NCBI GenBank assembly: GCA_021826485.1
Contig: JAKAZX010000001.1
Coordinates: 1-33,293, forward strand
Direction of reading: 5' to 3'
Source of the DNA: Pseudomonadota bacterium
Lineage (GTDB): Bacteria; Pseudomonadota; Alphaproteobacteria; Acetobacterales; Acetobacteraceae
Length of the DNA stretch: 33,293 nucleotides
Shown: one piece after another, positions 16,832 through 32,893 of the stretch
How positions within the stretch are numbered: the stretch's first letter is position 1
How the letters are laid out: each line of letters begins with the position of its first letter
Notes under the pieces: model-generated
Database searches by the model: none
What the model saw: the letters and a program-made list of their open reading frames with translations, nothing else
What the model was told of the DNA's origin: nothing
Made by a program: the position numbers and the translations under genes

Positions 16832-18055
16832 CTAACCGGCGCCCCCCGCCGGTGCCGCCTCAAACCCGCCATTCGGATGGAGCGAGTTCGCGGCGACCAT
16901 GACCATGCCGTCGTCGGGGAATCCGTCGTGATCGGTCGGCGAGAAGTGGAACGGGCCATAGGGCAGATCGATCGTGGGGATCGATTCCAGCGCCTGCTTC
17001 ACCGCGACCGTGTCCACCGTTCCGGCCTTCCGCACGCCGGCGGCGTAAATCATCGGGATGTTGTAACCTTGCAGCATGGCGTAGATTCCGGCTGCCATGA
17101 ACGGCCCCACCTCGGACTTGTAGCGGTCGAGGAAGGTCTGCGTGGCCGGCGGCAGATTGCCCTTCGCGTCCAGCACGGAGTTGGCGTAGGCGGGGCTGTA
17201 GACATTGGCCCAGTAGGCGCGGCTGGTCAGCAGATTCGCGACCTGTTCCTGCAACACAGCGGGGATCGCGATGACCGGGACATTCCAGTTCTGCTGGCCG
17301 CGGGCGTTCAGGACGCGCGCCAGGAAGCCGGTGGAATTCGACCAAAGATGCACCACGTCGGCGCCGGCATCGCGCGCCTTGTTGATCTCATCGGTCATGT
17401 CCGGCTGCCCGATATCGGCATTCACCCGGTAGACGGGCGTGACGCCCGCCGCCTTCAGCACGTGCTCGACGCTCTGCATGGCGAGCACGCCGAATCCCGA
17501 ATTGTCGTTGATGATCGCGACCTTGCGGCGCCGCAGGCCGTCCAGCGTGTATTTCACCGAGACGGTGAACCATTGTCCCGCCTTGTTCAGGCAGCGGAAC
17601 GCATAGGGGTACTTGACCGGGTCGATGAGCTGATCGACCGACCCGCTGATGATCTGGATCTTCTTCGCGGCCGTCACCACGCCGAGCGTAGGCAGCACCT
17701 CGCCGCTGTTGGTGGGGCCACCGATCATGTCCACATCGTTGTTGAACAGCAGCTCCTTGGTGAAGCTCACGGCCTTGGTCGGCTCCGCGGCCGAATCGCG
17801 GGTGATCGCCTCGAGCATGCGGCCGAGCAGTCCGCCGCCCGCGTTGATTTCCCCCAGCGCCTTCTGGAAGCCGAAATTGATTGCCTGCGCGTTGGTGGCA
17901 AATGCGCCGGTCAGCGCGACCACGAAGCCCAGCTTGATAGGGGCGGATGCCGCGCGGGCGGATCGGATGGCCGGCATCGCGAGCGGTGCCGCGGCGGCGG
18001 CGATCAGCAGGCTGCGGCGCCCGAGGGCGGATGAGTGCAGCCGCGTGACGATCAT
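16832..18055 (-). CDS. HAAT-family periplasmic substrate-binding protein (Leu/Ile/Val-binding-protein fold, Peripla_BP_6-like) with a Tat-like signal peptide
   Basis: Signal region LGRRSLLIAAAAAPLAMPAIRSARA followed by IKLGFVVALTGAFA, typical of LivK-type SBPs. The ATG at 18055 sits about 8 nt from the SD GGAGGAG. An ATG at 18061 is the alternative. Confidence 0.85.
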   Translation of the reverse strand: MIVTRLHSSALGRRSLLIAAAAAPLAMPAIRSARAASAPIKLGFVVALTGAFATNAQAINFGFQKALGEINAGGGLLGRMLEAITRDSAAEPTKAVSFTKELLFNNDVDMIGGPTNSGEVLPTLGVVTAAKKIQIISGSVDQLIDPVKYPYAFRCLNKAGQWFTVSVKYTLDGLRRRKVAIINDNSGFGVLAMQSVEHVLKAAGVTPVYRVNADIGQPDMTDEINKARDAGADVVHLWSNSTGFLARVLNARGQQNWNVPVIAIPAVLQEQVANLLTSRAYWANVYSPAYANSVLDAKGNLPPATQTFLDRYKSEVGPFMAAGIYAMLQGYNIPMIYAAGVRKAGTVDTVAVKQALESIPTIDLPYGPFHFSPTDHDGFPDDGMVMVAANSLHPNGGFEAAPAGGAG

Positions 18056-18205
18056 GGCCATCTCCTCCGGCGAACCCGGCCGGCGTCTTGGCAGCGCCGA
18101 CTTACAGAAATCGCTTTCATTGAACTAGGCCACCGATCGCCGGTGGTCAATAGCGAATAGCCGAAAGGGTGTGCGAACCGGCTTCCGCCGGGTGTCAGCG
18201 CGTGA

Positions 18206-20345: not shown

Positions 20346-21437
20346 GTGCAACGCCTGAACGTCGCCATCGTTGGTTGCGGCTGGGTAGCCGGTACGCAGA
20401 TGCGCCAGGGATTCCGCGCGCTGCCGGACCTGTTCGATGTCGTCGCCTGCTGCGACATCATCCCGGAGCGCGCATCCGCATTCGCCGCCGCGCACGGCAT
20501 CGGGCGCGTGCGGACCGATCTCGCCGACATTCTCGCCATGACGGATGTCGATGTGGTCAGCATCTGCACGCCGCCGACGCAGCACCATCCGATGGCGCTC
20601 GCCGTGCTGGGCGCGGGCAGGCATGCGATCTGCGAAAAGCCGCTGACCGCCTCGCTCGCGCTGCTGGAGGAAATTCGCGCGGCGGAGGCGGCATCGCGCG
20701 GCCGGCTGATGCCGATTTTCCAGTACCGGTTCGGGCAGGGAATCTGGAATGTCCGCCAGGCGATCCGGTCCGGCGTGCTCGGCCGCGCCTATGTCGCTTC
20801 GGCCGAAACGGCGTGGAGGCGTGGGGCGGAGTACTACCAGGTGCCGTGGCGCGGCAAATTCGCGACCGAACTCGGCGGCGTGCTGCTGACCCAGTCGATC
20901 CACATCCACGACCTGCTGCTCTGGCTCATGGGGCCCGTCGCTGCGGTCAGCGCGTTCAGGACCACGCGGGTCAATCCGATCGAGGTGGAGGATTGCGCGG
21001 TCGCCAGCCTCCGGCTGGCGGACGGGTCGCTGGCGTCATTGACGGCAACGCTTGGATCGCTGCGCCCGGTGACACGCCTGCGCTGCTGCTTCGAGAATGC
21101 TGTGATCGAGCGCATTGCGTGCGATGAGGAGGCCATCCGGCCCGGGGACGAGCCGTGGACGGTGACGCCGCGCGACAAGGCGTCGGGGCGGGAGATTGCC
21201 GCCGTGATGCAGACGGCACCGAGGGTTCGGCCCGGCTTCGCCGGCCAGTTCGAAGCGTTCCACCGCGCGCTGGCGGACGACCTGCCGTTCCCGGTGACGC
21301 TCGATGACGCGCGCCGCTCGCTCGAACTGATTACCGCGATGTTCCGCGCGCAGGAGACCGGCTGCGTCGTCGAGCTGCCGATCGGGCCCGACTCACCCGG
21401 CTATCATGGCTGGCTGCCGGCACGGAACGGGCGATAG
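20346..21437 (+). CDS. Gfo/Idh/MocA family oxidoreductase
   Basis: GTG start follows GGGGAG. Rossmann LNVAIVGCGWVAG and the EKP motif in AICEKPLTAS. The 3' end overlaps the convergent DUF917 gene by 34 nt. Confidence 0.88.
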   Translation: MQRLNVAIVGCGWVAGTQMRQGFRALPDLFDVVACCDIIPERASAFAAAHGIGRVRTDLADILAMTDVDVVSICTPPTQHHPMALAVLGAGRHAICEKPLTASLALLEEIRAAEAASRGRLMPIFQYRFGQGIWNVRQAIRSGVLGRAYVASAETAWRRGAEYYQVPWRGKFATELGGVLLTQSIHIHDLLLWLMGPVAAVSAFRTTRVNPIEVEDCAVASLRLADGSLASLTATLGSLRPVTRLRCCFENAVIERIACDEEAIRPGDEPWTVTPRDKASGREIAAVMQTAPRVRPGFAGQFEAFHRALADDLPFPVTLDDARRSLELITAMFRAQETGCVVELPIGPDSPGYHGWLPARNGR

Positions 21438-22495
21438 TCCAGGTCATAGCCGAAATAGCGCGGGCCAATCAGTTCCAGGCCCGCGGGCGTGCGCCACAGC
21501 GGGGTGCTGGCGCAGGCGAGCGCCTTCAGGCGCAGCCCGTAGCGCAGCGAGTCCGCCGTCACCGGCGTGCCGCTTTCGGCGTCCAGCAGCGTGATCAGGT
21601 CGGGCGTCGTCACCAGCGGCTCGCCGTCGCGATAGGCGATCAGGAACTCGTTCTGGAACTGCAGGCGGAAGCGATGGTCCGCCCATTCCTCCACGCCCTC
21701 GAAATCCGCGGTGCCGCGGGCGAAGCCGCCGACGGTCCGCCGTTCCACGTCGCGCACGCGCCCGTGGAAGATCACGTCCGCGTCGAGGATGTCGGCGATC
21801 TCGGCCACCGGATCGCCATGCGTGGCCCGCGCCTGCCGCAGCCGGCTGCCGAGGCGCGCGCACAGGCCGAGCGTTCCGCGCACCACCGCGCGCTTCGCCG
21901 TCGCACCGTCCATCGGGTAGAAGGCGAGCAGCGCCGATCCGCCCATTTCCACCGTGGCCGCGCGCGCGAGCCGCTCGGTCCAGGCGTTGGAGATGGTGTC
22001 GAGCACGATGGAATTGCCCTTGTCGTCGCACAGCACCATCGGCGTCGCCGACACGCCATGCAGCGTGAACGTCACCATCTGCAACTCGGGATAGGCGCGA
22101 CCCATGCCGTCGCCATCCACCAGCGGCCGATCGGCGGCGGCCGCGACCACGAACGGGGTGGTGGAATTGATGCCGCCCGCCTCGCCGCACAGCACCGCGT
22201 CGATCCGGCGGCCGAGCAGCGCTTCCAGCTTGCGGAATGCGATGACCAGTTCGTCGCCCTGCGGCAGCTTCTCGGTCATCACCGTCGGCGCGCCCATCAT
22301 GCACACCGGGACGACCAGCGCATCATTGCCGAGGCTGTCGACATCGATCAGGCGGACCGGCCCGTGCTGCCGAATCGCCTGCTGCGCCATCAGCTTGCCG
22401 ATATACGGATCGCCGCCGCCGCCGGTGCCGAGGATCGCGCCGCCGATCGCGATGTCCTCAAGCTCCGCTGTGCCGATCATGCGGTCGGTGGTCAT
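21404..22495 (-). CDS. DUF917 family protein (paralogue B)
   Basis: N-terminal LGTGGGGDPY and central DGDGMGRAYPELQM, the hallmarks I associate with DUF917. The ATG at 22495 overlaps the upstream stop as ATGA. The longer 495-aa track ORF is an out-of-frame extension. Confidence 0.8.
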   Translation of the reverse strand: MTTDRMIGTAELEDIAIGGAILGTGGGGDPYIGKLMAQQAIRQHGPVRLIDVDSLGNDALVVPVCMMGAPTVMTEKLPQGDELVIAFRKLEALLGRRIDAVLCGEAGGINSTTPFVVAAAADRPLVDGDGMGRAYPELQMVTFTLHGVSATPMVLCDDKGNSIVLDTISNAWTERLARAATVEMGGSALLAFYPMDGATAKRAVVRGTLGLCARLGSRLRQARATHGDPVAEIADILDADVIFHGRVRDVERRTVGGFARGTADFEGVEEWADHRFRLQFQNEFLIAYRDGEPLVTTPDLITLLDAESGTPVTADSLRYGLRLKALACASTPLWRTPAGLELIGPRYFGYDLDYRPFRAGSQP

Positions 22496-23595
22496 GCTGC
22501 GGCTCCTTCGGCGGTAAGGGGACGGTAGACGAGGTCGGGATAGCCGAAGGCCGCGGGGCCAACGACCTTGAGCGCGGCGTGGGTTTTCAGCAGATCGTGC
22601 GCCGGCAGGCCGATCACCGCGACGCGCTGGCCGTAGCGGAGCATCTCCGTCGTGATCGGCTCCCCGGTATCGCGCTCCAGATTCATGATCAGGTCGGGCA
22701 CGATCACTGCGGGTTCGCCGTCGATCCACAGCACGAGATTCTCGTTCTGGATGGCGATCTCGGCCTGCGCGCCGGCCCAGGCATCGGCGCCGGCGATCAC
22801 CGCCTTGCCGCGCGCGAAGCCGCCAATGAGTTCGCGCCGCACATCGACGATCTTGCCGGTGAAGAACACGCGGGCATTGGCGGCGCGGCACACCTCCGCG
22901 ATCACGTCGCGCCGCCGGGCGCGCGCCTCCAGGATGGTGTGGCCGAGCGCGATCGCCTGCGTCACCGTGCCGGGCACCGCCGTCCGGCGCACGAAATCCA
23001 TCCGCATCGGGGCGATCGCGAAGCCCGCCGCGGCACCCATCTGCACCGTGGTGCCGCGGGCGAGAGTTTCCAGCCAGTACATGTCCAGCACCTGCTGGTA
23101 GACCACGACATTGCCCTTCTCGTCCGCCACCGCGGACGGCGCGGGCCTGGCGCCGTAGATCATGAAGGTGGACATCTGCACTTCAGGAAACGCGCGGCCC
23201 ATGCCGTCGCCGTCCAGCACCGGCAGGCCGGACTGCGCCGAGGTGATGACCGGCTCCATCGAATTCGCCCCGCCGATCTCGCCCGAGATCAGCGCGCCGA
23301 AGGTGACGCGGGACGCCGCCTCCACCGCGCGCAGCGCGCGCAGGCATTCGGCGCCTTCCTCGAACTTCTCGACCCCGACGACGGGGGCGCCGATGCCGCC
23401 GACGACGCCGACCGCGACATCGTCCGGCAGCGCATCCAGCGGCACGATGCGCACCTCGGCACCGGCACGCATCAGCGTGCGGGTGCGCAGCATGCCGACA
23501 TACGGATTGCCGCCGCCGCCGGTGCCCAGCAGCGCGGCGCCGATCGCGAGCGCGCGCAGGTCGCGTTCGGTGAGGATGTAGCCTTCACGCGACAT
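22492..23595 (-). CDS. DUF917 family protein (paralogue A)
   Basis: LGTGGGGNPY and DGDGMGRAFPEVQM. It aligns with paralogue B along its whole length. The ATG at 23595 (or GTG at 23604) overlaps the 3' end of the hydantoinase-like gene. Confidence 0.8.
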   Translation of the reverse strand: MSREGYILTERDLRALAIGAALLGTGGGGNPYVGMLRTRTLMRAGAEVRIVPLDALPDDVAVGVVGGIGAPVVGVEKFEEGAECLRALRAVEAASRVTFGALISGEIGGANSMEPVITSAQSGLPVLDGDGMGRAFPEVQMSTFMIYGARPAPSAVADEKGNVVVYQQVLDMYWLETLARGTTVQMGAAAGFAIAPMRMDFVRRTAVPGTVTQAIALGHTILEARARRRDVIAEVCRAANARVFFTGKIVDVRRELIGGFARGKAVIAGADAWAGAQAEIAIQNENLVLWIDGEPAVIVPDLIMNLERDTGEPITTEMLRYGQRVAVIGLPAHDLLKTHAALKVVGPAAFGYPDLVYRPLTAEGAAA

Positions 23596-25132
23596 GGAGT
23601 TCACCCACCGCCTTCACCCGCACCCGCGTCGCGTTGCCGGGCAGATAGGCCAGCGGCACGTCCTCGACATCGACGATCTCGATCGTCTCGGGCCGCGCGC
23701 CGGCGGCGATGGCGGATGCGGTGGCCTTCGCCTTGGCGTCGGCCAGTGCCGCATCGCGCGTCATCTCGGCGAGCGCATAGACGCGATCCACCTCGCCCGA
23801 CACCTGCGCGATCGCGGCGCCGACGGCATTGGCGACGGCGTAGTGCTCTGGCAGCACCACCTGCAATCCGGCGATCGGACCATCGACGAGGATCGAGCCG
23901 CCGCCGACCACGATCACCGGCAGCGGATCGGGCGACAGGCGCGACCGTTCCACGCAATCCTCCAGCATCGCGTTGATCTTGGCCTGTGCGCGCGTCAGCA
24001 GCCCGGCATCGAGATGGGCGACGCGGGACGGATCGCCGAGCACCGTGCGGCCGGCCGCCACTTCGATGTCGGTCGCGGTCAGCGTGGTGCCGCCAAAGAT
24101 CAGCGCCTCGTTGACGATCCGGTAGCCGACCGAGGTGGGGCCGACGGTGATGCCGCCGGGACCGTCCACGACGCGCGAGCCGCCGCCGAGGCCGATGGAG
24201 AACACGTCCGGCATGCGGAAATTGGTGCGCACGCCGCCGACCTCGACCGCGATCGTCGCCTGGCGGGGAAACCCCTTGTGCAGCGAGCCGACATCGGTGG
24301 TGGTGCCGCCGATATCCACCACGATGGCATCGGCGACGCCGGAGAGAAAGGCCGCGCCGCGCATCGAGTTGGTTGGGCCGGAGGCGAAGGTCAGCACCGG
24401 GAAGCGCTTGGCGAATTCGGCCTCCATCAGCGTGCCGTCGTTCTGGGTCAGGAAGAAGCGGCCGCGGATGCCGGCGCCGATGACGGCGCGGCCGAACGCA
24501 TCGACGACCTTGGCCGACAGGTCGCGCAGGCAGGCATTCATGATCGCCGCATTCTCGCGTTCCAGCAGGCCGATGCGACCGATCTCCGACGACAGGGTGA
24601 TGTGCGCGTCGGGCAGTTCGCGCGCGAAGATCGCCGCGGCCCGCTGCTCGCAATCGGCCGAGACGGGAGAGAACACGGCGGTGATGGCGATGGTGTCGAT
24701 GCCCTTGGCGCGGATGTCGGCGGCGATGCCGACCAGTTCGGCTTCGTCGAGCGGGGCGATCACGCGGCCGTCGAACTCGTTGCCGCCATGTGCGAGATAG
24801 GCGTGGTTGCCGATGGCATCGCGCAGGTCCTCGGGCCAGTCCACCATCGGCGGCAGCGATGCGGTCGCGGGCAGGCCCAGCCGGACCGCCGCCGTGCGGG
24901 CAAGATCGCGGCGCTGCACCACGGCGTTGGTGAAATGCGTGGTGCCGATCATCACCACGTCCACGGCCTCCGGTGCGAGCCGCGCGGCCTCCAGGATGCC
25001 GGCCAGTGCGGCGACGACGCCGGACATCACGTCCTCGGTGGTGGCGCGCTTCACCCCGGCGAGCACGCGGGAACCGTCCATGGCCACCGCATCGGTGTTG
25101 GTGCCGCCTACGTCGATGCCGATCCTGATCAT
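23585..25132 (-). CDS. Hydantoinase/oxoprolinase A-like ASKHA-fold ATPase (HyuA-type), 515 aa
   Basis: ASKHA phosphate-1 IGIDVGGTNTD, phosphate-2 VVDIGGTTTDV, and adenosine motif VIVVGGGSIL. The ATG at 25132 overlaps the upstream ATPase stop as ATGA. Confidence 0.85.
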   Translation of the reverse strand: MIRIGIDVGGTNTDAVAMDGSRVLAGVKRATTEDVMSGVVAALAGILEAARLAPEAVDVVMIGTTHFTNAVVQRRDLARTAAVRLGLPATASLPPMVDWPEDLRDAIGNHAYLAHGGNEFDGRVIAPLDEAELVGIAADIRAKGIDTIAITAVFSPVSADCEQRAAAIFARELPDAHITLSSEIGRIGLLERENAAIMNACLRDLSAKVVDAFGRAVIGAGIRGRFFLTQNDGTLMEAEFAKRFPVLTFASGPTNSMRGAAFLSGVADAIVVDIGGTTTDVGSLHKGFPRQATIAVEVGGVRTNFRMPDVFSIGLGGGSRVVDGPGGITVGPTSVGYRIVNEALIFGGTTLTATDIEVAAGRTVLGDPSRVAHLDAGLLTRAQAKINAMLEDCVERSRLSPDPLPVIVVGGGSILVDGPIAGLQVVLPEHYAVANAVGAAIAQVSGEVDRVYALAEMTRDAALADAKAKATASAIAAGARPETIEIVDVEDVPLAYLPGNATRVRVKAVGELHVA

Positions 25133-26031
25133 CTGTCCGATACTTCGCTGTGGTTCGGTGGGTCCGTTGCCAGCCCGGCGAGGAGCTGGTCCGCCGTCGC
25201 AACCTCGCCGCCGATCATCGGCAACGGCGGGCGCATCGCCGCCTCCTCCGGCGAGATCACCGGGACGGAGGCGAGCAGGAGGCGGGTATAGGGGTGGCTG
25301 GGGGTGGTGAAGACATCCGCGGTCGGTCCGCTCTCCACCAGCCGGCCGCGATACAGCACGCCGACGCGCTGGGCGAAATTGCGCATCAGGCTGAGATCGT
25401 GCGAGATGAACAGATAGGTGAGATCGAGCCGCCGGCCGAGATCGATCAGCAGGCCGATGACGCGCGCCTGCACGGAGACATCCAGCGCCGAGGTCGGCTC
25501 ATCGAGCACGACCAGCTTCGGTTCGACCGACAGCGCCCGGGCGATCGCCACGCGCTGCTTCTGCCCGCCGGACAGTTCGTGCGGATATCGCGCGGCGAAA
25601 TCGGTGGGCAACTGCACCGTGGCCAGCAATTCGTCGATGCGCTCGGCGCGGCGCTGCCGGGCGAGGCCGTGGGCGGCCAGCGGCACCGCCAGCGACTGGC
25701 CGACGGTGCGGCGCGGATTGAGCGAGGAGCCGGGATTCTGGAACACCATCTGCACCATGCGGCCGAACGCCCGCGTGCCGGCGGTGGCGGCGATGTCCGC
25801 GCCGTCGAGCAGGATGCGCCCCTCGCTCGGCGGCGTCAGGCCGAGGATCATGCGCGCGATGGTGGATTTCCCCGATCCGCTCTCTCCCGCGAGTCCGTAG
25901 ACCTCGCCACGGGCGATCGTGAGCGACACGCCGTCCACCGCGGTCATGGTCTCGGTGCGGCGGCCGAAGGCATTGCGCAGCGGAAACCGCTTGACCACGC
26001 CGTCGAGTGCAAGGATCGGCGGCTCGCTCAC
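25129..26031 (-). CDS. Peptide/opine/nickel-type (PepT) ABC transporter ATP-binding protein, DppF/OppF-like
   Basis: Walker A GESGSGKSTIARM, signature LSGGQKQRVAIARAL, Walker B LVVLDEPTSALD. The GTG start overlaps the upstream stop (GTGA). Confidence 0.9.
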   Translation of the reverse strand: MSEPPILALDGVVKRFPLRNAFGRRTETMTAVDGVSLTIARGEVYGLAGESGSGKSTIARMILGLTPPSEGRILLDGADIAATAGTRAFGRMVQMVFQNPGSSLNPRRTVGQSLAVPLAAHGLARQRRAERIDELLATVQLPTDFAARYPHELSGGQKQRVAIARALSVEPKLVVLDEPTSALDVSVQARVIGLLIDLGRRLDLTYLFISHDLSLMRNFAQRVGVLYRGRLVESGPTADVFTTPSHPYTRLLLASVPVISPEEAAMRPPLPMIGGEVATADQLLAGLATDPPNHSEVSDR

Positions 26032-26882
26032 GTTTCGTCGTCCGTGCGGGCGAGGGTTGCGAAGCTGGTGCCGCCGGTCAGCCGCGGGACGCTCGCGATC
26101 AGGTTACGCGTATAGTCCTCGCGCGGCGCGGCGAACAGCGCCTGCGCCTCTGCCGCCTCGACGATGCGGCCGCGATGCATGACATGCACGTAGTGCGACG
26201 TCTCGCGCACCACGCCCAGGTTGTGCGTGATCATCAGCAGCGCCAGATGCTGCTCCTCGACCAGGTCCTTCAGCAGCTTGAGGATCTGCGCCTGGGTGGT
26301 GACGTCCAGCGCGGTGCCGGGCTCATCGGCGATCAGCAGCCGCGGCTGGGACAGCAGCGCCATTGCGATCAGCACGCGCTGCTTCATGCCGCCCGACAGC
26401 ATGATCGGATAGGACGCCGCCACCCGTTCGGGATCGCGCATCCGCACCTGCGCGAGCACTTCATGCACGCGCGCGCGCCGCCCGGCACGGCCGCGCTGCC
26501 GCCCCAGGCGACGGTCGGCGTATTTCAGGATGGTGCCCATCTGGTCGGCGACGGTGAACACGGGGTTCAGCGAACTCATCGGGTCCTGGAAGATCATGGC
26601 CATTGCCGTCCCGCGCAGCCGGTCGCGCTCGGCCCGGGATGCGCGCAGCAAGTCGCGCCCGTCGAACAGGATTTCGCCCGCGGTGACGCGCGCCGGCGGC
26701 TCGCGCAGCAGGCCCATGATCGCCTTCATCGTCACCGTCTTGCCGGAGCCGCTTTCGCCGACGAGTGCGACCTGCGAACGCTCCGGTACCGCGAGCGTGA
26801 CGCCGTGCAGGACGGCGTTCGTCCGCCCGTAGGTGGTGAACTCGACCGAGAGATTGCGCACGCTGAGGAGCGGCTCGGTCAT
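26028..26882 (-). CDS. PepT-family ABC transporter ATP-binding protein, DppD/OppD-like
   Basis: Walker [14 protein letters not shown], signature [15 protein letters not shown], Walker [13 protein letters not shown]. The ATG at 26882 overlaps the permease stop as ATGA. Confidence 0.9.
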
Positions 26883-27745
26883 CGCACCTCCTGCACGTCG
26901 AACACGTCGCGCAGGCCGTCGCCGAGCAGGTTGAAGCCGAGTGCCACGAACAGGATGGCGCAGCCGGGCAGCACCGACTCCCACCACTTCTCGGGCAGGT
27001 AGGCGGCGCCGGTCGCGACCATCGTGCCGAGATCGGGGGTGGGCGGACGGATGCCGAGGCCGAGGAAGGACAGCGACGCGCCGACCAGGATGACGAACCC
27101 CGCATCGAGCGAACACTTCACCACGATCGGCGGCAGGCAGTTCGGCAGCAGTTCGCGGAACAGGATATGCAGCGGCCCGGCGCCGACCATGCGCGCCGCC
27201 TCGATGTATTCCTGCGTGCGCAACTGGCGGGCGAGCGAATAGACCAGCCGCGCGTGCCACGTCCACCACAGGATCGCGATGGCGAGCATGGAGTGGAACA
27301 GGCTGGGCGACAGCACCGCGGCGACTGCGAGCGCCATCACCAGCGGCGGGATGGCGAGCGCGATATCGGTCGTCCGCATGATCGCGATCTCCACCCAGCC
27401 GCCGTAATAGCCGGCGAGCATGCCGAGGATGGCGCCGAACGGAACCGCGGTGCCGAGCACGACGACCACCAGCAGCAGCGAGACGCGGTAACCGAAGATC
27501 ACGCGCGTCAGGATGTCGCGGCCGACATCGTCGGTGCCGAACCAGTGCAGCGCCGATGGCGGCAAATGACGGGACCGGAAATCCACCACCGCCTTCACCG
27601 CGTTGGGAAACGGCGTGATCCAGGGCGCGAGGATCGTGGCGGCGATGCAGATCAGCACGATCGCCGCCCCGATCACCGCGGTGGGATTGCGGGAGAAGCG
27701 GTACCAGCGCAGATAGCCGGCGGACAGGCGGGGCGGCTCGCTCAC
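26879..27745 (-). CDS. PepT-family ABC transporter permease, DppC/OppC-like
   Basis: Polytopic protein with the EAA-loop region EYIEAARMVGAGPLHILFRELLPN. The GTG at 27745 overlaps the upstream stop (GTGA). The rest of the 617-aa track ORF is out-of-frame shadow sequence. Confidence 0.88.
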   Translation of the reverse strand: MSEPPRLSAGYLRWYRFSRNPTAVIGAAIVLICIAATILAPWITPFPNAVKAVVDFRSRHLPPSALHWFGTDDVGRDILTRVIFGYRVSLLLVVVVLGTAVPFGAILGMLAGYYGGWVEIAIMRTTDIALAIPPLVMALAVAAVLSPSLFHSMLAIAILWWTWHARLVYSLARQLRTQEYIEAARMVGAGPLHILFRELLPNCLPPIVVKCSLDAGFVILVGASLSFLGLGIRPPTPDLGTMVATGAAYLPEKWWESVLPGCAILFVALGFNLLGDGLRDVFDVQEVR

Positions 27746-28767
27746 GCGCGGGCACCACGGATGCGGATGCGCGGATCGACCAGGCCGACCAGCAGGTCGA
27801 TGACGAGATTGACGCCGACGAAGAACGCGCCCGAGACCATGACGACGCCCATGACCGCATTCAGATCCTTCTGCAGGATGGTGCGGATGCCGTAGGCTGC
27901 CATGCCGGGCCAGGAGAACACCAGTTCCACCACGAATGCGTTGCCGATCATCGACGCGAATTCCAGCCCCAGGATCGTCAGGGGCGCCACGAAGGATGGC
28001 CGCAGCGTGTATTTCAGCACCCGCAGCCAGTCGGGAATGCCGAAGGCGCGGGCGGCCTCGATATAGTCCTGGCTCATCACCTCCAGCATGGAGGCGCGGG
28101 TCAGTCTCGCCATCTGGCCCATCGTCGCCGCGGCCAGCGCGGTGGCCGGCAGCAGCAGATGGCGCAGCGCGTCGAGCGTGACAGCGAACCGGCCTTCCAG
28201 CAGCGAGTCGAGCGTGATCAGCCCAGTGATGTCGGCGTGGAACGGATCGGCCGGATCGAGCCGCCCGGTGGTCGGCAGCACATGCAGCACGTAGCCGGCG
28301 AGAAGTTGCAGCAGCAGCGCCAGGAAGAAGGTGGGCGTGACCGCGCCCAGGATCGCCACCAGCCGCGATGCGGTGTCGGGCCAGCGATCCTTCCAGCGGG
28401 CGGCGGCGATGCCGAGCGGCAGGCCGGCGGCGAGCGCGAGGAAGATCGTCGCCAGCACGAGTTCCAAGGTGGCAGCGAAGGATTCGCGGATATCGTCGGT
28501 CACCGCCCGCTCGGTGAGCAGCGACCGGCCGAGATCGCCATGCGACAGCGCGGCGACGAACAATCCGTACTGCGTGATCAGCGGCCGATCGAGCCCGAGC
28601 TTGTGGCGCAGGTCGGTCACCTGTTCCTGCGTCGCGGTTGGGCCGAGCGCCATCCGCGCCGGATCGCCCGGCACCGCGCGCGCGATCAGGAAGATGACGA
28701 CCGAAAGCCCCACCAGCACGAGCAGCGACCACAGCACCCGCCGCAGCAGGAACAGCAGGAATTCCAC
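27742..28767 (-). CDS. PepT-family ABC transporter permease, DppB/OppB-like
   Basis: The N-terminus LLRRVLWSLLVLVGLSVVIFLIARAVPGDP and the EAA loop DYIEAARAFGIPDWLRVLKYTLRPS are typical of DppB. GTG start at 28767. Confidence 0.88.
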   Translation of the reverse strand: MEFLLFLLRRVLWSLLVLVGLSVVIFLIARAVPGDPARMALGPTATQEQVTDLRHKLGLDRPLITQYGLFVAALSHGDLGRSLLTERAVTDDIRESFAATLELVLATIFLALAAGLPLGIAAARWKDRWPDTASRLVAILGAVTPTFFLALLLQLLAGYVLHVLPTTGRLDPADPFHADITGLITLDSLLEGRFAVTLDALRHLLLPATALAAATMGQMARLTRASMLEVMSQDYIEAARAFGIPDWLRVLKYTLRPSFVAPLTILGLEFASMIGNAFVVELVFSWPGMAAYGIRTILQKDLNAVMGVVMVSGAFFVGVNLVIDLLVGLVDPRIRIRGARA

Positions 28768-28786
28768 CGACCGCGCCGCCGGTCGC

Positions 28787-30355
28787 TCAGTTGCAGTTCC
28801 AGCTGTACAGCTTGAAGTCGTAGTCGAAGGATTGCATCGGGATGGCGCGGTAGTCGCTCAGGCACTTGTCCTCGGCATGCCGGACGGTCTGGGTTTCCAG
28901 GAACGCATCGGACTGCATGTCGACAAGCTTGTGCTGCAATTCCTTGTAGATCGCCACCTGCTGCGCCTTGTCGCCGGTGGCGCGGGCCTTGTCGATCAGC
29001 CCGTCGATCTCCGGGCTGTTCACCCATTCCAGCGAGGCCCAGGTGCCCGCGGCCTTGCTGTCATACTGGGTGAAGAACATCGAATCCGGGCTGGGATAGG
29101 TCGGGCCGAAGAACACCTCCGACACGTTCGGCGAGGTGTCGACCTTGGCGGCAAGCTGCGTCACCCGGTTCCACGGATCGGGCTGCGGCGTCACCTTGAA
29201 GCCCACCTGCTCCAGGTTCGACTGCATCAGCAGGGCGATATCCTCCTCGAACTTGGTGCCGGCGACGTATTGCAGCACCAGCGGGATATCCCCCTTGCCG
29301 GCATACTTGCTTTTCGCCACTTCGTCCTTGGCGCATTGCAGATCGAATTTCGGCTTTGGCAGGTCGTTCGCATGATAGTCGGCGAACACCTTGGGCAGCG
29401 GCCCGTCGAGCTCGCCGCCCGGCAGGATCGTGCTGCGGATGGTGTCGTAGTCGGTGGCGCAGGCGATGGCGCGGCGTATATGCACGTCGTCGGTCGGCGC
29501 CTTCTGGGCATCGAGCTTGAGGTAGAAGGCGGTTGCCGTGTCTTGCTTTGCGATCTTCATGCGCGGCATCTTGGCCAGCGCCTCGTAGGTCTCCGGCGCC
29601 TGGAACTGGCTGGTCATGGTCAGCTCGCCGGAAGCGGCGAGCGACTTCACGGTCGCTTCGTCGTTGGCGATGATCCAGTGGACCTGGTCGATCGGATGCG
29701 CCTTCCAGCCGCCGTAATAGTGCGGGTCGCGCACGATCGTCATCTGGCTGCCGCGATCCCAGCTTTTCAGCAGATAGCCGCCGGCGCCGGCGACACGGGT
29801 TGCCAGGTAGGTCTGGCCGTCGTCGCTGCCGGCATTGGCCTGCACGACCTTGGAATTGAGGATGAACACCGCCGGGACGGTGGCGAGGAACGGCGCGAAG
29901 GTCTTGGACAGGGTGAACTTGACGGTGTGGTCATCGACCGCGGCGACGGAGCCGGGCTTGAGCACGCCGGCGAACAGGTTGGCGGGTCCCTGGTTGATCT
30001 TCAGCAGCCGGTCGAAGGTGAACACCACGTCCTTGGCCGTCACCGGCGTGCCGTCGGAGAAATGCGCGTCGGGGCGCAGGTGGAAGGTCACCTCGCGGGC
30101 ATCGGCGGATACGTCCCAGCTTGCCGCGATCTCGGGCTTCAGGTTGCCGCTGTAATCGACCCCGACCAGCCCGTCGTACAGATTCACCGCCGCCATGTAG
30201 TCCGTGTAGTCGGAGATCTTGGAGGGGTCCACGGTGCTGAATATCTGCGACGTATTCATCGTCACCAGGGTCTCCGCCTCGGCGCGCGGCGCGGCGAATG
30301 CCGCAAGTGCTAGGATGCCGGCCGCTGCCGAATGCAACAATGCTTGCCTGACCAT
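28787..30355 (-). CDS. Family-5 periplasmic substrate-binding protein (DppA/OppA-like) with a Sec signal peptide
   Basis: ATG at 30355 follows AAGGA. Signal peptide MVRQALLHSAAAGILALAAFAAPRAEA. The SBP_bac_5 hallmark is FHLRPDAHFSDGTPVTAKDVVFTFDRL. Confidence 0.9.
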   Translation of the reverse strand: MVRQALLHSAAAGILALAAFAAPRAEAETLVTMNTSQIFSTVDPSKISDYTDYMAAVNLYDGLVGVDYSGNLKPEIAASWDVSADAREVTFHLRPDAHFSDGTPVTAKDVVFTFDRLLKINQGPANLFAGVLKPGSVAAVDDHTVKFTLSKTFAPFLATVPAVFILNSKVVQANAGSDDGQTYLATRVAGAGGYLLKSWDRGSQMTIVRDPHYYGGWKAHPIDQVHWIIANDEATVKSLAASGELTMTSQFQAPETYEALAKMPRMKIAKQDTATAFYLKLDAQKAPTDDVHIRRAIACATDYDTIRSTILPGGELDGPLPKVFADYHANDLPKPKFDLQCAKDEVAKSKYAGKGDIPLVLQYVAGTKFEEDIALLMQSNLEQVGFKVTPQPDPWNRVTQLAAKVDTSPNVSEVFFGPTYPSPDSMFFTQYDSKAAGTWASLEWVNSPEIDGLIDKARATGDKAQQVAIYKELQHKLVDMQSDAFLETQTVRHAEDKCLSDYRAIPMQSFDYDFKLYSWNCN

Positions 30356-30480
30356 CTGTTTGTCCTTTTCCCGTCCCCGCCAGCACCTTTGCCGCGTCCG
30401 CACGCTGCTGGTCCCGGACCGCGGCCCCGGCGCCCATGGTGCGCAGGGTTTCGCCGGCCAGCAATGCGGGAAAAGTCGAG

Positions 30481-30495
30481 GTTTTTGACAAAAAC
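30481..30495. promoter_or_regulatory. AT-rich perfect inverted repeat GTTTTTG-A-CAAAAAC between the LAL regulator gene and the importer operon. Candidate operator or promoter element.
   Basis: Read directly from the sequence. It has 7-bp exact arms in a strongly GC-rich background and contains TTGACA (+) / TTGTCA (-). It lies about 125 nt upstream of the SBP start codon and about 35 nt downstream of the regulator stop. Confidence 0.4.
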
Positions 30496-30529
30496 GTCTA
30501 GGTCCGGCGGGGCCCGCCGCCCCCCGGCC

Positions 30530-32893
30530 TCAGGACAGCACGCCGAGCGCCCGCGCCGCGTTGATCGCCTCCCGCCGCCGCCGGCAACCGAGTTTCCGGT
30601 AGGCGTTGCCGAGATGGTATTTCACCGTCGCCTCGGTGACGCCGAGCGCCTTGGCGATGAACTTGTTGGACCCGCCCTCGGCGATCATCAGCAGGACTTT
30701 CGACTCCCGCCTTGTCAGCCCGTTCTTCACCCCCGGCGGCGCCGCGGCGAGGCCGGCGAGGCCGAGCCGGCGCAGGATGGCGCGAGCGGGGGACGAGGCC
30801 TGCACGAAATCCCGCAGCCGGCGGTTGCCGAGCAGTTCGGCGAGGAAATATCGTTCCTCCGCCAGCGGCGCCACCGCGCCCAGCCGCGCCGCCTGTTCCA
30901 GCGCCGACAGCAGCAGCGCCCGGCAGCGCGACGGATCGCGCCGGTATCGGCTTACATAGGCAAGCCAGAGCTGGACTGCAATCTTCTGCCGGCCGGTGAG
31001 TTGCAGATTGGCGTGAATCTGCTCCAGCCGTTCGGCCAGCAGCGGGCGCGCCGGCGCCTCGAACGCCGACTGGCGCAGGCAGGCCAGCGCCAGCGCCACC
31101 TCGTCGCGCGCGTGCAGGCGGCCCAGGTCGCCCTGCGCCAGCACCGCCTCATGATCCGCCGCGCCCGCCAGCACCCGCAGCTTCTCCGCCGCCTCCTGCC
31201 AGCGGTTGCCGCTTTGCAGGATGATCGCCTCGCGGATGTTGATCATCGCTGCGAACTGGTGGGTGTGGATCTGATAGACCCGCCAGCGGTCGAGATAGCT
31301 GCGCGCCGCGAGCGTCGAGAAATGCTCGCTCAGCGCCTGGCTGCCGTAGTGCAGCGCGAGGTCGATCACCGTCGGCCAGATCTCGGCATGCGAGAAATCG
31401 TCGAACTCGGTGCTGAGGAAGCGTGCCAGCGGCTGCACCCGCCCGGCTTCGTAATCGACGCAGGCCTGCAGCAGCGCCAGCAGGCGGCTGTCGTTCGGGC
31501 TCGCATAGCCGACGGCGGCGAGATCGGCGGCGGCGGCATCGGCGAAGCGCCGCGCCTGCTGCGCGTCGCCCTGCAGCAGCCGCATCACCGACTGGTGCAG
31601 CCGGATGTAGAATTGCAGCATCGGCATGTCGGCGGCGGCATAGTGTTCCCAGGCGCGGATCGCCACGTCCTCGGCCTCGGCGAAGCGGCGGCGGCGGATG
31701 AAGAACTCCAGCATGGAGTTGTAGAACGAGCCGCGTTGCAGATGCGCGTCCGCCGGCAGTTCGCGGATCAGGCCGAAGATGCGCTCGAACAGGTCGTCGC
31801 TGACCAGCACGTCCTCGTAGATCAGCATCAGCACGCGGAAGAAGCGGAACTCCCGCGAATAGCGTCCGTCGGTGTCGAACACCGAATCCGCCGCCAGCGC
31901 CCGGTTGCCGAAATGGTCGGCGACGAGCTGGCGGGTGCGCGGCAGGTCGCCCCGCTTCAGCGCCTGCAGGCACCGCGCCAGCACCAGCGTCTCGTGGCGC
32001 TCGGCATAGTCGGGCGGGAACCCGGCGAGGATGCGCGCGAAGGCGCCGCCGCCGCACCGGTAGAAATAGAAGAACCCGTGCTGCTCCTTCAGGATCGCGA
32101 GCGCGGCATCGAGATGCCCGGCGCCCTGCAGGGCGGCGATCGCGGCGAGGGTGCGGCCCTGCGCGCGCAGCGCCGCGGCCAACGCCGCGGCGGTTTCTGC
32201 ATCGGCGATCCGGCGCGCGAAGTCCGCCGCATGGCCGCGCGCCAGATGCGGGCGCAGCGCCTCCGCCCGCAGTGCCGAAGGGGTGCCGGCGCGGATGGCC
32301 GGCGCCAGCGGCCCGGCATCGGCCAGCGACAGCGGTTCACCCTCGATGATCCGGCCGAGGGTGACGAAGTCCGCTGCCGGCAGCGCCGCCATCCAGTCCT
32401 CCGCCAGCACCGCCTCCAGCCGGGCGGCGTCGCGTCCCGTCTCGACGAAGCCGAGCAGCAACGGCCAGCCGCCGCTCGCGTCCATGATCCGCTCGGCGCG
32501 CCGGCGCGGCAGGCGGGCGGCGAGTTCGGGGGCGGTGAACAGCAGCGCGGCGGTGTCGATGACATGGGCGCGGCCATAGGCCACCGCGCGGTCGAGGCCG
32601 GGCAGGACCGCCTGCGGCCGTTTGGCCAGGATCAGGCGGTCCGCGCCGGCCATGAAGCGTTCCGGCAGCGGCCCCGGCGCCGCGTGCGGCGGCAGGTCCC
32701 ACAGCAGCGGCGCGCCGTCGCCCGGCGGGGCGGGCGGCGCGGTGCCCAGATGCACCTCCCGGCCGAGCCGGGCGGCGAGCTGGCGGAGCAGCACCGACTT
32801 GCCGCAGCCGGCTGGCGCCTCGATCAGCACGATCGGCTCCGGCCGCGCCAGGATGCGGGCGAGCAGGCCGTCGCGCGGCAGCTCGGCGGCCAT
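30530..32893 (-). CDS. Large ATP-binding LuxR-family (LAL / MalT-like) transcriptional regulator
   Basis: N-terminal P-loop IEAPAGCGKSVLL, a long helical repeat-like middle region, and a C-terminal LuxR HTH LTRRESKVLLMIAEGGSNKFIAKALGVTEATVKYHLGNAYRKLG. Confidence 0.88.
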   Translation of the reverse strand: MAAELPRDGLLARILARPEPIVLIEAPAGCGKSVLLRQLAARLGREVHLGTAPPAPPGDGAPLLWDLPPHAAPGPLPERFMAGADRLILAKRPQAVLPGLDRAVAYGRAHVIDTAALLFTAPELAARLPRRRAERIMDASGGWPLLLGFVETGRDAARLEAVLAEDWMAALPAADFVTLGRIIEGEPLSLADAGPLAPAIRAGTPSALRAEALRPHLARGHAADFARRIADAETAAALAAALRAQGRTLAAIAALQGAGHLDAALAILKEQHGFFYFYRCGGGAFARILAGFPPDYAERHETLVLARCLQALKRGDLPRTRQLVADHFGNRALAADSVFDTDGRYSREFRFFRVLMLIYEDVLVSDDLFERIFGLIRELPADAHLQRGSFYNSMLEFFIRRRRFAEAEDVAIRAWEHYAAADMPMLQFYIRLHQSVMRLLQGDAQQARRFADAAAADLAAVGYASPNDSRLLALLQACVDYEAGRVQPLARFLSTEFDDFSHAEIWPTVIDLALHYGSQALSEHFSTLAARSYLDRWRVYQIHTHQFAAMINIREAIILQSGNRWQEAAEKLRVLAGAADHEAVLAQGDLGRLHARDEVALALACLRQSAFEAPARPLLAERLEQIHANLQLTGRQKIAVQLWLAYVSRYRRDPSRCRALLLSALEQAARLGAVAPLAEERYFLAELLGNRRLRDFVQASSPARAILRRLGLAGLAAAPPGVKNGLTRRESKVLLMIAEGGSNKFIAKALGVTEATVKYHLGNAYRKLGCRRRREAINAARALGVLS

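Follow-up and report, generated by a model that had tools for sequence, protein, structure and literature searches.

A truncated HyuA-type ATPase linked to DUF917 proteins: a putative ATP-driven enzyme for small ring-shaped amides

In Agrobacterium, the catabolism of agropinic acid involves an AgaA-type family-5 substrate-binding protein and a HyuA/HyuB-like lactamase. The gene cluster described here lies in a window of 33,293 nucleotides, one contig of a metagenome-assembled genome, and resembles this opine lactam catabolism in that a family-5 substrate-binding protein (SBP) and a Dpp-type importer are coupled with a hydantoinase-family ATPase. The closest PDB relative of the SBP is AgaA, the agropinic-acid binder (6hlx, 129 bits), barely ahead of OppA at 123 bits, a margin too weak to name the ligand. 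The pTi loci, however, encode full-length HyuA and HyuB, whereas the window encodes a short HyuA-type protein (HyuA-short) and DUF917 proteins, and an opine oxidoreductase is not among the genes conserved around the module in 80 related loci.

With the ATP-dependent lactamases and hydantoinases of the HyuA/HyuB family (caprolactamase CapAB, 5-oxoprolinase OplAB/OPLAH, N-methylhydantoinase HyuAB) and the acetone and acetophenone carboxylases, HyuA-short shares the Hydant_A_N and Hydantoinase_A domains and both ASKHA motifs, and its gene, as in the pTi HyuA/HyuB pairs, directly adjoins that of its presumed partner. Unlike members of that family, it occurs without HyuB, is about 190 C-terminal residues shorter, falls in a separate sequence cluster and has a partner, DUF917, of unrelated fold. 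The DUF917 proteins of the window in turn share two Pfam domains with the (S-methyl)thiohydantoin desulfurases (NF058532, NF058529), but score only 98-116 bits on the desulfurase models (cut-offs 440-450), are about 27% identical to the enzyme encoded on Agrobacterium tumefaciens pAtA6 and have no urocanase-like gene adjacent; HyuA-linked DUF917 is always beside HyuA-short, which the desulfurase cluster lacks. A literature search found no paper assigning a pathway to this gene set, in keeping with its initial annotation as an uncharacterised system.

Gene cluster, importer and regulator

By Pfam identities and sequence reading, eight genes are tightly packed on the minus strand at 21404-30355. 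The arrangement is as initially annotated, with five 4-nt stop/start overlaps, one overlap of 11 or 20 nt and one 19-nt gap; the eight-gene unit is thus correct as far as it goes, but the full unit has nine genes, the LuxR-type regulator gene included.

30530..32893, minus strand: LuxR-type regulator, 787 aa; N-terminal P-loop APAGCGKS and C-terminal LuxR/GerE helix-turn-helix, MalT/LAL-like
30475..30503, minus strand: AT-rich element ACCTAGACGTTTTTGTCAAAAACCTCGAC in the regulator-SBP spacer; inverted repeat GTTTTTG/CAAAAAC
28787..30355, minus strand: family-5 periplasmic SBP, 522 aa; Pfam SBP_bac_5, 7.4e-70
27742..28767, minus strand: DppB/OppB-type permease, 341 aa; Pfam BPD_transp_1 and BPD_transp_1_N
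26879..27745, minus strand: DppC/OppC-type permease, 288 aa, GTG start; Pfam BPD_transp_1 and OppC_N
26028..26882, minus strand: DppD-type ABC ATPase, 284 aa; Pfam ABC_tran and oligo_HPY
25129..26031, minus strand: DppF-type ABC ATPase, 300 aa; Pfam ABC_tran and oligo_HPY
23585..25132, minus strand: HyuA-short, ASKHA ATPase, 515 aa; Pfam Hydant_A_N, 1.2e-38, and Hydantoinase_A, 7.8e-32
22492..23595, minus strand: DUF917a, 367 aa from ATG (alternative GTG start 23604); S-Me-THD_N, 6.2e-53, and S-Me-THD_C, 2.5e-64
21404..22495, minus strand: DUF917b, 363 aa; S-Me-THD_N, 3.5e-62, and S-Me-THD_C, 1.6e-65

The junctions, taken from direct sequence reading, are the following.

SBP to DppB/OppB-type permease: 19-nt gap (SBP stop 28787, GTG start 28767)
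DppB/OppB-type to DppC/OppC-type permease, minus strand: GTGA at 27742-27745
DppC/OppC-type permease to DppD-type ATPase, minus strand: ATGA at 26879-26882
DppD-type to DppF-type ATPase, minus strand: GTGA at 26028-26031
DppF-type ATPase to HyuA-short, minus strand: ATGA at 25129-25132
HyuA-short to DUF917a, minus strand: overlap of 11 nt (ATG start 23595) or 20 nt (GTG start 23604)
DUF917a to DUF917b, minus strand: ATGA at 22492-22495

Public gene calls use the ATG at 23595 as the start of DUF917a. The overlapping junctions support a single transcript, though they are unremarkable in themselves: 4-nt overlaps are common in the operons of this 68% G+C genome, and a Liv-type ABC operon nearby has them too. 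Pfam E-values of 1e-25 to 1e-70, orthologues of about 80% identity in Devosia, Labrys, Rhizobiaceae and Paracoccaceae, and a gene order shared with Devosia sp. FKR38 and with M. japonicum pMLa indicate that the open reading frames of the cluster are genuine genes and not chance. In the window the module is flanked by GFO/IDH/MocA, Zn-ADH and DHDPS genes, none of which occurs in any of the 80 related loci. The SBP scores under all NCBIfam equivalog cut-offs and is 40% identical to that of an equivalent module on Haloferax volcanii pHV3.

The regulator gene, 175 nt upstream of the operon, is probably transcribed on its own. Its product matches Pfam GerE (3.6e-17, residues 726-778) and, weakly, an nSTAND NTPase, and a large LuxR gene adjoins the module in Devosia FKR38, on M. 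japonicum pMLa and in 18 of the 80 related loci. The element ACCTAGACGTTTTTGTCAAAAACCTCGAC occurs once in the window (0 expected by chance) and is kept in alignments with the Devosia and M. japonicum spacers, the rest of which have diverged, which makes it a candidate operator or promoter element.

HyuA-short and the DUF917 proteins

HyuA-short aligns with residues 1-487 of a 678-aa canonical HyuA, the C-terminal ~190 residues being missing, and its Hydantoinase_A match spans profile positions 1-174 of 291. The phosphate-binding motifs DVGGTNTD (at residue 7) and DIGGTTTD (at residue 273), which agree with those defined for CapA (PMC8453981), and a conserved Lys are invariant or nearly so in a 42-sequence alignment used for invariant columns, and the ATPase looks functional. 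Among plasmid homologues, members of the short family are at least 44% identical over 99-100% of the query and canonical HyuA proteins at most 31%; judged by sequence, HyuA-short is a distinct truncated subfamily. The initial label of a HyuA-only ATPase is therefore apt in that there is no HyuB partner, but this is not a plain lone HyuA.

DUF917, currently named S-Me-THD in Pfam, is not wholly uncharacterised: distant stand-alone members match the NCBIfam (S-methyl)thiohydantoin desulfurase models. One of these, from A. tumefaciens pAtA6, reaches 555 bits, where the cut-off for S-methyl thiohydantoin desulfurase is 450, and its gene adjoins that of an S-methyl thiourocanate hydratase, with no HyuA close by. 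From such family members it appears that DUF917 is a catalytic fold by itself. None of 114 HyuA-linked DUF917 proteins reaches E<=1e-90 against these models, so the chemical analogy may not transfer; moreover, since the named desulfurases lie in clusters without HyuA, DUF917 may need no activated intermediate. DUF917a and DUF917b are 42% identical, and DUF917a retains every family motif. The AlphaFold2 model of DUF917b (pLDDT 79, pTM 0.83) has a single significant fold match in the PDB, 2O3I (TM 0.80), with which the window proteins have in common the fold and the motifs GxGGGG, E-x-GG, D-x-D-G-x-G-R-A-x-P and Q-N-E. This structure is an unannotated structural-genomics entry and the only DUF917 of solved structure. 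No HyuB chain or HyuB-like fold was found among the Foldseek matches, and the HyuB-type metal tetrad is not detectable in DUF917.

Linkage and natural fusions

The absence of HyuB from the window, claimed initially, was borne out twice: no open reading frame carries a Hydantoinase_B domain in Pfam, and tblastn with the bona fide HyuB of pTi_CFBP2516 gave no match in any frame of the 33 kb. The gene-neighbourhood count across genomes, proposed with the same annotation, covered 72 loci in which HyuA-short has at least 1.3 kb of sequence to either side, from Alpha-, Beta- and Gammaproteobacteria, Chloroflexota, Actinomycetota and Bacillota. A DUF917 gene lies within about 600 nt of HyuA-short in all 72, on the same strand and within 400 nt in 70 and within about 600 nt in the other two, a linkage as tight as is usual for subunits of one enzyme. 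DUF917 lies downstream in 55 of the 72, the commonest order. Two DUF917 genes per HyuA, as first noted, hold for the window but are not general: blocks have one copy in 35 loci (as do the fusions described below), two in 25 and at least three in 10, with 1 to 5 copies per HyuA-short, and the M. japonicum locus has lost DUF917a.

The same module is also found on Haloferax megaplasmids, and a Lactiplantibacillus plasmid carries a minimal set, PucR-NCS1 permease-DUF917-HyuA. An NCS1 permease (cytosine/purine, uracil, thiamine, allantoin family) is near the module in 23 loci and a Dpp-type ABC transporter in about 18; other recurrent neighbours are an Asp/Glu/hydantoin racemase (7 loci), a PucR regulator (7) and a nitroreductase (4). 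These neighbours fit small cyclic amides, and a preprint of 2023 had already, on independent grounds, pointed out DUF917, hydantoin racemase and peptide transporters in the surroundings of cyclodipeptide-oxidase-like genes.

Among the best 150 representatives at the 50% identity level, 57 are fusions of HyuA-short and DUF917 of 835-2715 aa; each has Hydant_A_N, Hydantoinase_A and S-Me-THD domains, and Hydantoinase_B is absent from all of them. Ten were looked up by name, of which eight proved eukaryotic and two were nameless; the named ones and the near homologues belong mostly to marine invertebrates and protists. For the Acanthaster fusion, close homologues that carry a name are found in echinoderms, amphioxus, molluscs, cnidarians and Trichoplax. 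In the eukaryotic proteins (for instance those of Acanthaster planci, XP_022083172, Branchiostoma, Haliotis, Trichoplax and Anaeramoeba), which are labelled 'uncharacterized protein / hydantoinase', an N-terminal half 50% identical to HyuA-short of the window is followed by one DUF917, which is also the commonest bacterial gene order; they differ from the window in being one polypeptide with a single DUF917, a linker of about 43 residues and no transporter context. The Acanthaster fusion, a eukaryotic protein modelled in place of the window proteins and judged on pTM and pLDDT, gave a pLDDT of 86.6 and a pTM of 0.87 over 1007 residues (AlphaFold2, 44 sequences). Because such a pTM would otherwise be hard to reach with a disordered 43-residue linker, the two modules seem to pack in a defined way, and a defined HyuA/DUF917 interface is predicted for this protein.

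Proposed function and alternatives

We consider it somewhat probable, largely by analogy with the hydantoinase family, that the locus is an uptake-and-conversion module in which HyuA-short and DUF917 form an enzyme that would open an imported cyclic amide with ATP. DUF917 could instead be the sole catalyst, a cofactor-free hydrolase, with HyuA-short acting as an ATP-dependent activase, reactivase, chaperone or gate (cf. GlmL/MutL-type proteins and BcrAD/HgdC). Stand-alone DUF917 enzymes do occur without HyuA, HyuA-short has secondary Pfam and NCBIfam matches to MutL/GlmL and BcrAD_BadFG, and dehydratase activators and a corrinoid reactivation factor are among the weaker ASKHA matches of the fusion in Foldseek. 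However, the MutL and BcrAD matches are under the Pfam cut-offs, no partner with a radical or redox cofactor is in evidence, and by far the best matches in sequence and structure are substrate-phosphorylating subunits (N-methylhydantoinase, acetone carboxylase beta, acetophenone carboxylase, caprolactamase alpha); an accessory role seems unlikely. It is likewise improbable that the two are consecutive, physically independent pathway enzymes, for example an ATP-dependent step and then hydrolysis of a different bond, with no stand-in for HyuB: the linkage, found in all 72 loci and across six or more phyla, is stricter than that of usual pathway neighbours, transporters and regulators are swapped around a constant pair, the pTM of the fusion suggests rigid packing, and the loss of the canonical HyuA C-terminus coincides with the change of partner. 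Synteny and fusion would nonetheless be equally expected of such enzymes, and 1 to 5 copies of DUF917 are unusual for a complex of fixed stoichiometry.

The nucleophile is not fixed by any of the data, the HyuA family takes in the acetone and acetophenone carboxylases, among the best structural matches, and caprolactamase requires bicarbonate (PMC8453981), all of which would suit a non-hydrolytic ATP-dependent reaction such as carboxylation, amidine formation (ammonia attacking a phospho-imidate) or ATP-driven isomerisation. The setting is catabolic, however, with importers, substrate-responsive regulators and a location on plasmids in soil and food bacteria, no enzyme that would process a carboxylated product further is conserved, and the named DUF917 members are hydrolytic, which leaves such chemistry distinctly unlikely. 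As the HyuB search here covers one contig of a metagenome-assembled genome, an ordinary HyuA/HyuB enzyme with its HyuB encoded elsewhere and DUF917 genes as unrelated passengers was also considered. This is close to refuted: a HyuB lies within 10 kb in only one of the 80 related loci (tblastn), 7.6 kb off and in a separate canonical HyuAB pair with full-length HyuA, HyuA-short is sharply separate and lacks the canonical C-terminal region, and all fusions examined join DUF917 and never HyuB. The initial proposal that DUF917 replaces HyuB holds for a linked partner, on the 72 loci and 57 fusions; for catalysis the replacement is something we infer, the two folds being different.

For the preferred reading, a self-contained uptake-and-conversion module, we infer that the proteins form a complex in this bacterium and that the reaction depends on ATP, proceeds by phospho-imidate chemistry and opens a ring, as well as the class of substrate. 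The MalT/LAL-like LuxR regulator would control the operon, probably via the AT-rich element, and the Dpp/Opp-type ABC importer would take up a small peptide-like or N-heterocyclic compound, whose cytoplasmic conversion would fall to a non-canonical enzyme of truncated HyuA-type ASKHA ATPase and DUF917. HyuA-short may use ATP to turn a ring amide or ureide carbonyl into an O-phospho-imidate (lactim phosphate), a step also proposed for CapA, OplA and HyuA; DUF917, in the place of HyuB, would then catalyse the attack of water on the activated carbon, so that the leaving group is lost and the ring opens. DUF917a and DUF917b probably form a heteromer here, the minimal unit elsewhere presumably being one HyuA-short and one DUF917. 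The product is presumably some ordinary metabolite, for instance an amino acid or a dipeptide, given that the module has no other dedicated enzyme conserved at its side. More generally, the pairing points to a putative, widespread ATP-driven enzyme for small ring-shaped amides. A parallel may be seen in the named stand-alone DUF917, which would displace a sulfur leaving group at C2 of (S-methyl)thiohydantoin; the desulfurase name implies H2S or methanethiol as that group.

Layout of the module and its upstream region

On the minus strand of the window (68% G+C), Pfam searches on the window ORFs place eight genes between 30355 and 21404, with the gene for a large regulator directly upstream. 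Five of them encode the complete set of parts (5/5) of a PepT importer of the Dpp/Opp/Nik type, one a truncated HyuA-type protein (hereafter HyuA-short), and two encode proteins with the S-Me-THD domains, which is Pfam's present name for DUF917 (DUF917a and DUF917b).

30530-32893, minus: 787-aa regulator with a C-terminal GerE/LuxR domain
30475-30503, minus: AT-rich 29-mer ACCTAGACGTTTTTGTCAAAAACCTCGAC, inside the 175-nt spacer from the LuxR-type regulator gene to the SBP gene
28787-30355, minus: family-5 SBP of the importer
Rest of the importer, minus: two BPD_transp_1 permeases (one with OppC_N) and two oligo_HPY ATPases
23585-25132, minus: HyuA-short, 515 aa, Hydant_A_N + Hydantoinase_A
22492-23595 (or 23604), minus: DUF917a, S-Me-THD_N + S-Me-THD_C
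21404-22495, minus: DUF917b, S-Me-THD_N + S-Me-THD_C
Five 4-nt junction overlaps, minus: GTGA at 27742, ATGA at 26879, GTGA at 26028, ATGA at 25129, ATGA at 22492

The initial annotation had described an operon of eight tightly packed genes, and both this layout and its junctions proved accurate, every junction having been read on the sequence. Apart from the five 4-nt overlaps, there is a 19-nt gap behind the SBP gene, and the genes for HyuA-short and DUF917a overlap by 11 nt if the latter begins at the ATG at 23595, as in public gene calls, or by 20 nt with the GTG at 23604. The overlaps argue for a single transcript, although they are not in themselves unusual: the neighbouring Liv-type operon also has overlapping junctions and such arrangements are commonplace in this genome. 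The operon architecture is ordinary and the transporter generic. At the other end of the module, the last 34 nt of the DUF917b gene (21404-21437) are shared with the 3' end of a convergent gene for a GFO/IDH/MocA oxidoreductase (20346-21437, plus strand), which leaves no space for a terminator between the two.

The helix-turn-helix of the regulator scores 62 bits against the GerE/LuxR model of Pfam (cut-off 23.5), and its residues 26-33 form a Walker-A-like APAGCGKS, with a Pfam nSTAND match of 20 bits that falls below the cut-off of 34. A large LuxR gene also stands beside the module in Devosia sp. FKR38 and on plasmid pMLa of M. japonicum, and a related LuxR gene family was found in 18 of 80 related loci. 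The 29-mer in the spacer combines the inverted repeat GTTTTTG/CAAAAAC with the repeated CCTAGAC/CCTCGAC and can be abbreviated as ACCTAGAC...CCTCGAC. It is kept in two Devosia loci (L005 and L008) and, in a variant form, in the M. japonicum locus (L007), while the remaining spacer has diverged, and it is a plausible candidate for an operator or promoter element. Upstream of the module, no riboswitch or other RNA element matched at Rfam gathering scores.

The short HyuA and its genomic partners

HyuA-short scores 133 and 111 bits for Hydant_A_N and Hydantoinase_A, both over the cut-offs, and carries the phosphate motifs DVGGTNTD and DIGGTTTD, whose columns are invariant or nearly so throughout the short family. 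At 515 aa it departs from the full-length HyuA architecture (about 680-700 aa, with a C-terminal region): its alignment with a canonical 678-aa HyuA from a Ti plasmid is confined to residues 1-487, and its match to the 291-position Hydantoinase_A profile spans just positions 1-174. Homologues encoded on plasmids are either of the short type, with at least 44% identity over the whole query, or canonical HyuA proteins with at most 31% identity over part of it, and by this measure the short family is set sharply apart from canonical HyuA.

The absence of a HyuB gene, which the initial annotation had claimed for the window, was borne out in two ways: Pfam detected no Hydantoinase_B domain in any of the sizeable ORFs, and a six-frame tblastn of the window with the HyuB whose gene adjoins that of the canonical HyuA of pTi_CFBP2516 gave no matches. 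These results led us to reject a HyuB concealed in the window or joined to another ORF. Over the 80 related loci, with flanks of up to 10 kb, the same tblastn gave a single match (L049), where the HyuB gene adjoins a separate full-length HyuA located 7.6 kb from the short one.

These 80 loci were obtained by a profile-guided scan with one genome per species, and span Alpha-, Beta- and Gammaproteobacteria, Chloroflexota, Actinomycetota and Bacillota. The synteny count was restricted to the 72 loci in which the short HyuA gene has 1.3 kb or more on either side. A DUF917 gene on the same strand lies within 400 nt of it in 70 of them, and in the other two one lies within about 600 nt. By copy number of DUF917 in the contiguous block, 35 loci have one, 25 have two, 9 have three and 1 has five. 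The proposal of the initial annotation that a DUF917 pair stands in for HyuB is partly supported: the linkage between short HyuA and DUF917 is constant (72/72 loci), but a pair is not general, with a single copy in 35 loci. Two Chloroflexota loci (L019, 7555-16946; L022, 7976-16963) have five to six DUF917 paralogues around one short HyuA, with a Dpp-type transporter adjoining. In three Rhizobium/Agrobacterium loci (L023, L026 and L068, at about 14400-17050), the SBP gene of the first module is followed directly downstream by a second, diverged pair of DUF917 and short HyuA (52% identity), so that two such enzymes are encoded side by side.

The same module is found on plasmid pHV3 of Haloferax volcanii (L006, 1432-12098), where three DUF917 genes surround a short HyuA, accompanied by genes for an SBP, two permeases and two ATPases, with 40% (SBP) and 51% (HyuA) identity to the window proteins; such a copy on a haloarchaeal megaplasmid implies that the entire module was transferred between domains. 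On a Lactiplantibacillus plasmid the set is minimal, with four genes for a PucR regulator, an NCS1 permease, DUF917 and short HyuA. The nine-gene cluster on M. japonicum pMLa has a complete DUF917b and a DUF917a reduced to a 77-aa remnant (10538-10771), which suggests either that the module can do without DUF917a or that the cluster is in decay. A DDE transposase gene lies about 0.9 kb downstream of this remnant.

The two proteins also occur as one. With the short HyuA as query, an exhaustive HMMER search over 1.84 billion cluster representatives (50% identity) found 986 relatives at E<=1e-30, that is, about 1,000 clusters at 50% identity. Among the best 150 representatives, 57 are 835-2715 aa long, and all 57 join Hydant_A_N and Hydantoinase_A to S-Me-THD; none of these 57 fusions has a Hydantoinase_B domain. 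Ten were looked up by name, of which eight were eukaryotic and two nameless. Those close homologues of the Acanthaster planci fusion that carry a name belong to echinoderms, amphioxus, hemichordates, molluscs, cnidarians, Trichoplax, a brachiopod, a priapulid and a sponge, and protist fusions to Anaeramoeba, Pelomyxa and Ancoracysta. These animal and protist fusions measure about 1000 aa, are almost all annotated as "uncharacterized protein" and occur as tandem paralogues in several species (Haliotis, Gigantopelta). An AlphaFold2 model of the Acanthaster fusion, built from a 44-sequence alignment, reached a mean pLDDT of 86.6 and a pTM of 0.87, with a disordered linker of 43 residues (538-580); a pTM of this value over the whole chain implies that the predicted interface between the HyuA and DUF917 parts is confidently placed. 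In Foldseek searches its N-terminal half matched the ATP-binding subunits of N-methylhydantoinase, of acetone and acetophenone carboxylases and of caprolactamase, and its C-terminal half matched only 2O3I, with no HyuB chain.

The putative role of DUF917

Both DUF917 proteins of the window score 179-220 bits per S-Me-THD domain (PF06032 and PF20906; cut-off 27), are 42% identical to each other and keep the family motifs GTGGGGxPY, GExGGxNS, DGDGMGRAxPExQM, GGFARG and QNE, which are also present in 2O3I, a structural-genomics entry and the only solved member of the family. The invariant core of 114 HyuA-linked DUF917s includes D129, G132, R133, P136 and E283. The AlphaFold2 model of DUF917b (pLDDT 79, pTM 0.83) likewise found only 2O3I in the PDB (Foldseek E=7.6e-19, TM 0.80) and nothing resembling HyuB. 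With DUF917b and the C-terminal half of the fusion both confined to this match, the idea of a remote HyuB homologue was rejected: as a partner, DUF917 is unrelated to HyuB and not a diverged form of it.

Some DUF917s do have assigned names. The two NCBIfam equivalog models for (S-methyl)thiohydantoin desulfurase (NF058532 / NF058529) have cut-offs of 450 / 440 bits, against which DUF917a scores 98 and 86 bits and DUF917b 116 and 88 bits. As a positive control, a stand-alone DUF917 on A. tumefaciens pAtA6 scored 555 bits for S-methyl thiohydantoin desulfurase (cut-off 450) and its neighbour 976 bits for S-methyl thiourocanate hydratase (cut-off 880), at a locus without a short HyuA. None of the 114 HyuA-linked DUF917s reaches E<=1e-90 to the desulfurase models, and they form, by their scores, a subfamily apart from the desulfurases. 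The window contains no urocanase-like ORF, which is present at the control locus; together with the NCBIfam cut-offs, this led us to reject the window proteins as thiohydantoin desulfurases of an ergothioneine-type pathway. The control locus itself (L090, 6896-13890) also has genes for a molybdopterin S/N-oxide reductase, a Zn hydrolase and a GST clustered with those for the desulfurase and the hydratase, and seems to serve the breakdown of an S-methylated compound of the ergothioneine type.

In caprolactamase and related enzymes, the ASKHA ATP site lies in the HyuA-type subunit, marked by DxGGTxTD (phosphate-1 motif) and DxGGT (phosphate-2 motif), and this subunit has been proposed to phosphorylate the lactim tautomer; a tunnel would then lead the intermediate to the HyuB-type subunit, whose metal site is where hydrolysis takes place (PMC8453981). 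On the basis of the near-invariant DVGGTNTD and DIGGTTTD, we propose that the short HyuA could carry out the same ATP-dependent activation, and that DUF917 could take HyuB's role in the second half-reaction, acting as an "imidate hydrolase" that would receive an O-phospho-lactim from the truncated HyuA kinase. The named DUF917s offer a chemically attractive analogy for this putative step. In S-methyl thiohydantoin, a thioimidate, C2 bears a good leaving group, and an O-phospho-lactim is the oxygen/phosphate counterpart of this compound; the desulfurase chemistry is presumably as the NCBIfam names and the literature on ergothioneine catabolism would have it.

We lean, with modest confidence, towards a complex of HyuA-short and DUF917 that would convert the imported compound at the expense of ATP, with DUF917 in HyuB's role. 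A sharper version is more tentative: a hand-off of a phospho-imidate followed by opening of the cyclic amide ring, in which DUF917 would give ATP-dependent amide activation a third and non-homologous way to complete its second half-reaction, the enzyme being distributed from bacteria and haloarchaea to marine invertebrates (there as a single fused protein), with small cyclic amides such as 2,5-diketopiperazines (cyclic dipeptides), pyroglutamyl-type lactams or unusual hydantoins as natural substrates. We know of no catabolic enzyme for small cyclic amides of this kind. DUF917 could instead be the sole catalyst and the short HyuA an ATP-dependent accessory, as the existence of stand-alone DUF917s and the sub-threshold MutL/BcrAD similarities of the short HyuA would allow, although we think this unlikely. 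The two proteins could also be consecutive and independent enzymes, an arrangement compatible with both synteny and fusion to which we give the same low credence, and it is more doubtful still that the chemistry is ATP-dependent and not hydrolytic. Hardly any weight is left for a HyuB encoded elsewhere, which is nearly excluded by the distinct short HyuA subfamily, by the tblastn over the related loci and by the fusions without Hydantoinase_B.

To our knowledge, ATP-dependent lactam and hydantoin hydrolases and carboxylases have been described so far only as assemblies of HyuA and HyuB. The locus is an ordinary representative of a large, conserved and uncharacterised system that departs from them in a defining feature, and whose enzyme pair extends over three domains of life, in soil, marine, gut and food bacteria, haloarchaea and animals. 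The pairing is visible in databases, usually annotated as "hydantoinase/oxoprolinase family protein" and "DUF917 domain-containing protein", and a full-text literature search found neither a functional study of it nor a paper recognising it as an enzyme. If the short HyuA truly works with DUF917, a large protein family would gain a testable function and a partner; a gene called "uncharacterized" in echinoderms, amphioxus, molluscs, cnidarians and placozoans would acquire a candidate role; and there would be a concrete candidate for the long-missing openers of stable small rings such as diketopiperazines, of relevance to nitrogen scavenging, turnover of signalling molecules and biocatalytic lactam hydrolysis. 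Compact modules of regulator, importer and enzyme, such as that of the window or the four-gene set of Lactiplantibacillus, make the question directly testable.

Neighbouring genes and substrate class

Around the constant core of short HyuA and DUF917, the genes that are exchanged among the 80 loci are mostly transporters and regulators.

Genes found beside the short HyuA/DUF917 core (80 related loci)
NCS1 permease (cytosine/purine, uracil, thiamine, allantoin family): 23 loci
Dpp-type ABC system: about 18 loci
Large LuxR regulator: 18 loci
PucR regulator: 7 loci
Asp/Glu/hydantoin racemase: 7 loci
TonB receptor: 6 loci
Nitroreductase-family gene: 4 loci

The SBP remained far below the cut-offs of all NCBIfam models of transporters with known substrates (DppA, OppA, NikA, GsiB, CntA and others), the best score being 118 bits for a cut-off of 947. 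Its top PDB match is AgaA, which binds agropinic acid, barely ahead of OppA; with scores almost equal, naming a ligand from the SBP was rejected. A 2023 preprint on cyclodipeptide oxidases reports DUF917, hydantoin racemase and di/oligopeptide transporters around CDO-like genes of the non-CDPS type, and calls DUF917 uncharacterised, possibly a hydantoinase. Taken together, these observations point to a probable substrate class of small cyclic amides or ureides, often chiral and resembling hydantoins, lactams or diketopiperazines.

The genes for the GFO/IDH/MocA oxidoreductase, a Zn-ADH and a DHDPS that flank the module in the window have no homologue at 1e-20 in the 80 related loci, and their membership in the pathway, as in an opine-like route, was rejected for this reason (0/80). 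With no counterparts of these flanking genes, the module appears to be self-contained and would be expected to yield a common metabolite. The remainder of the window (1-20300) is a patchwork of genes for catabolism and transport, none of them linked to the module in other genomes, which includes:

13436-18061, minus: Liv-type ABC system
11717-13429, minus: GMC oxidoreductase
10581-11720, plus: LacI regulator
8277-10423, minus: family III CoA-transferase and enoyl-CoA hydratase
6361-7257, plus: intradiol (catechol/hydroxyquinol-type) dioxygenase
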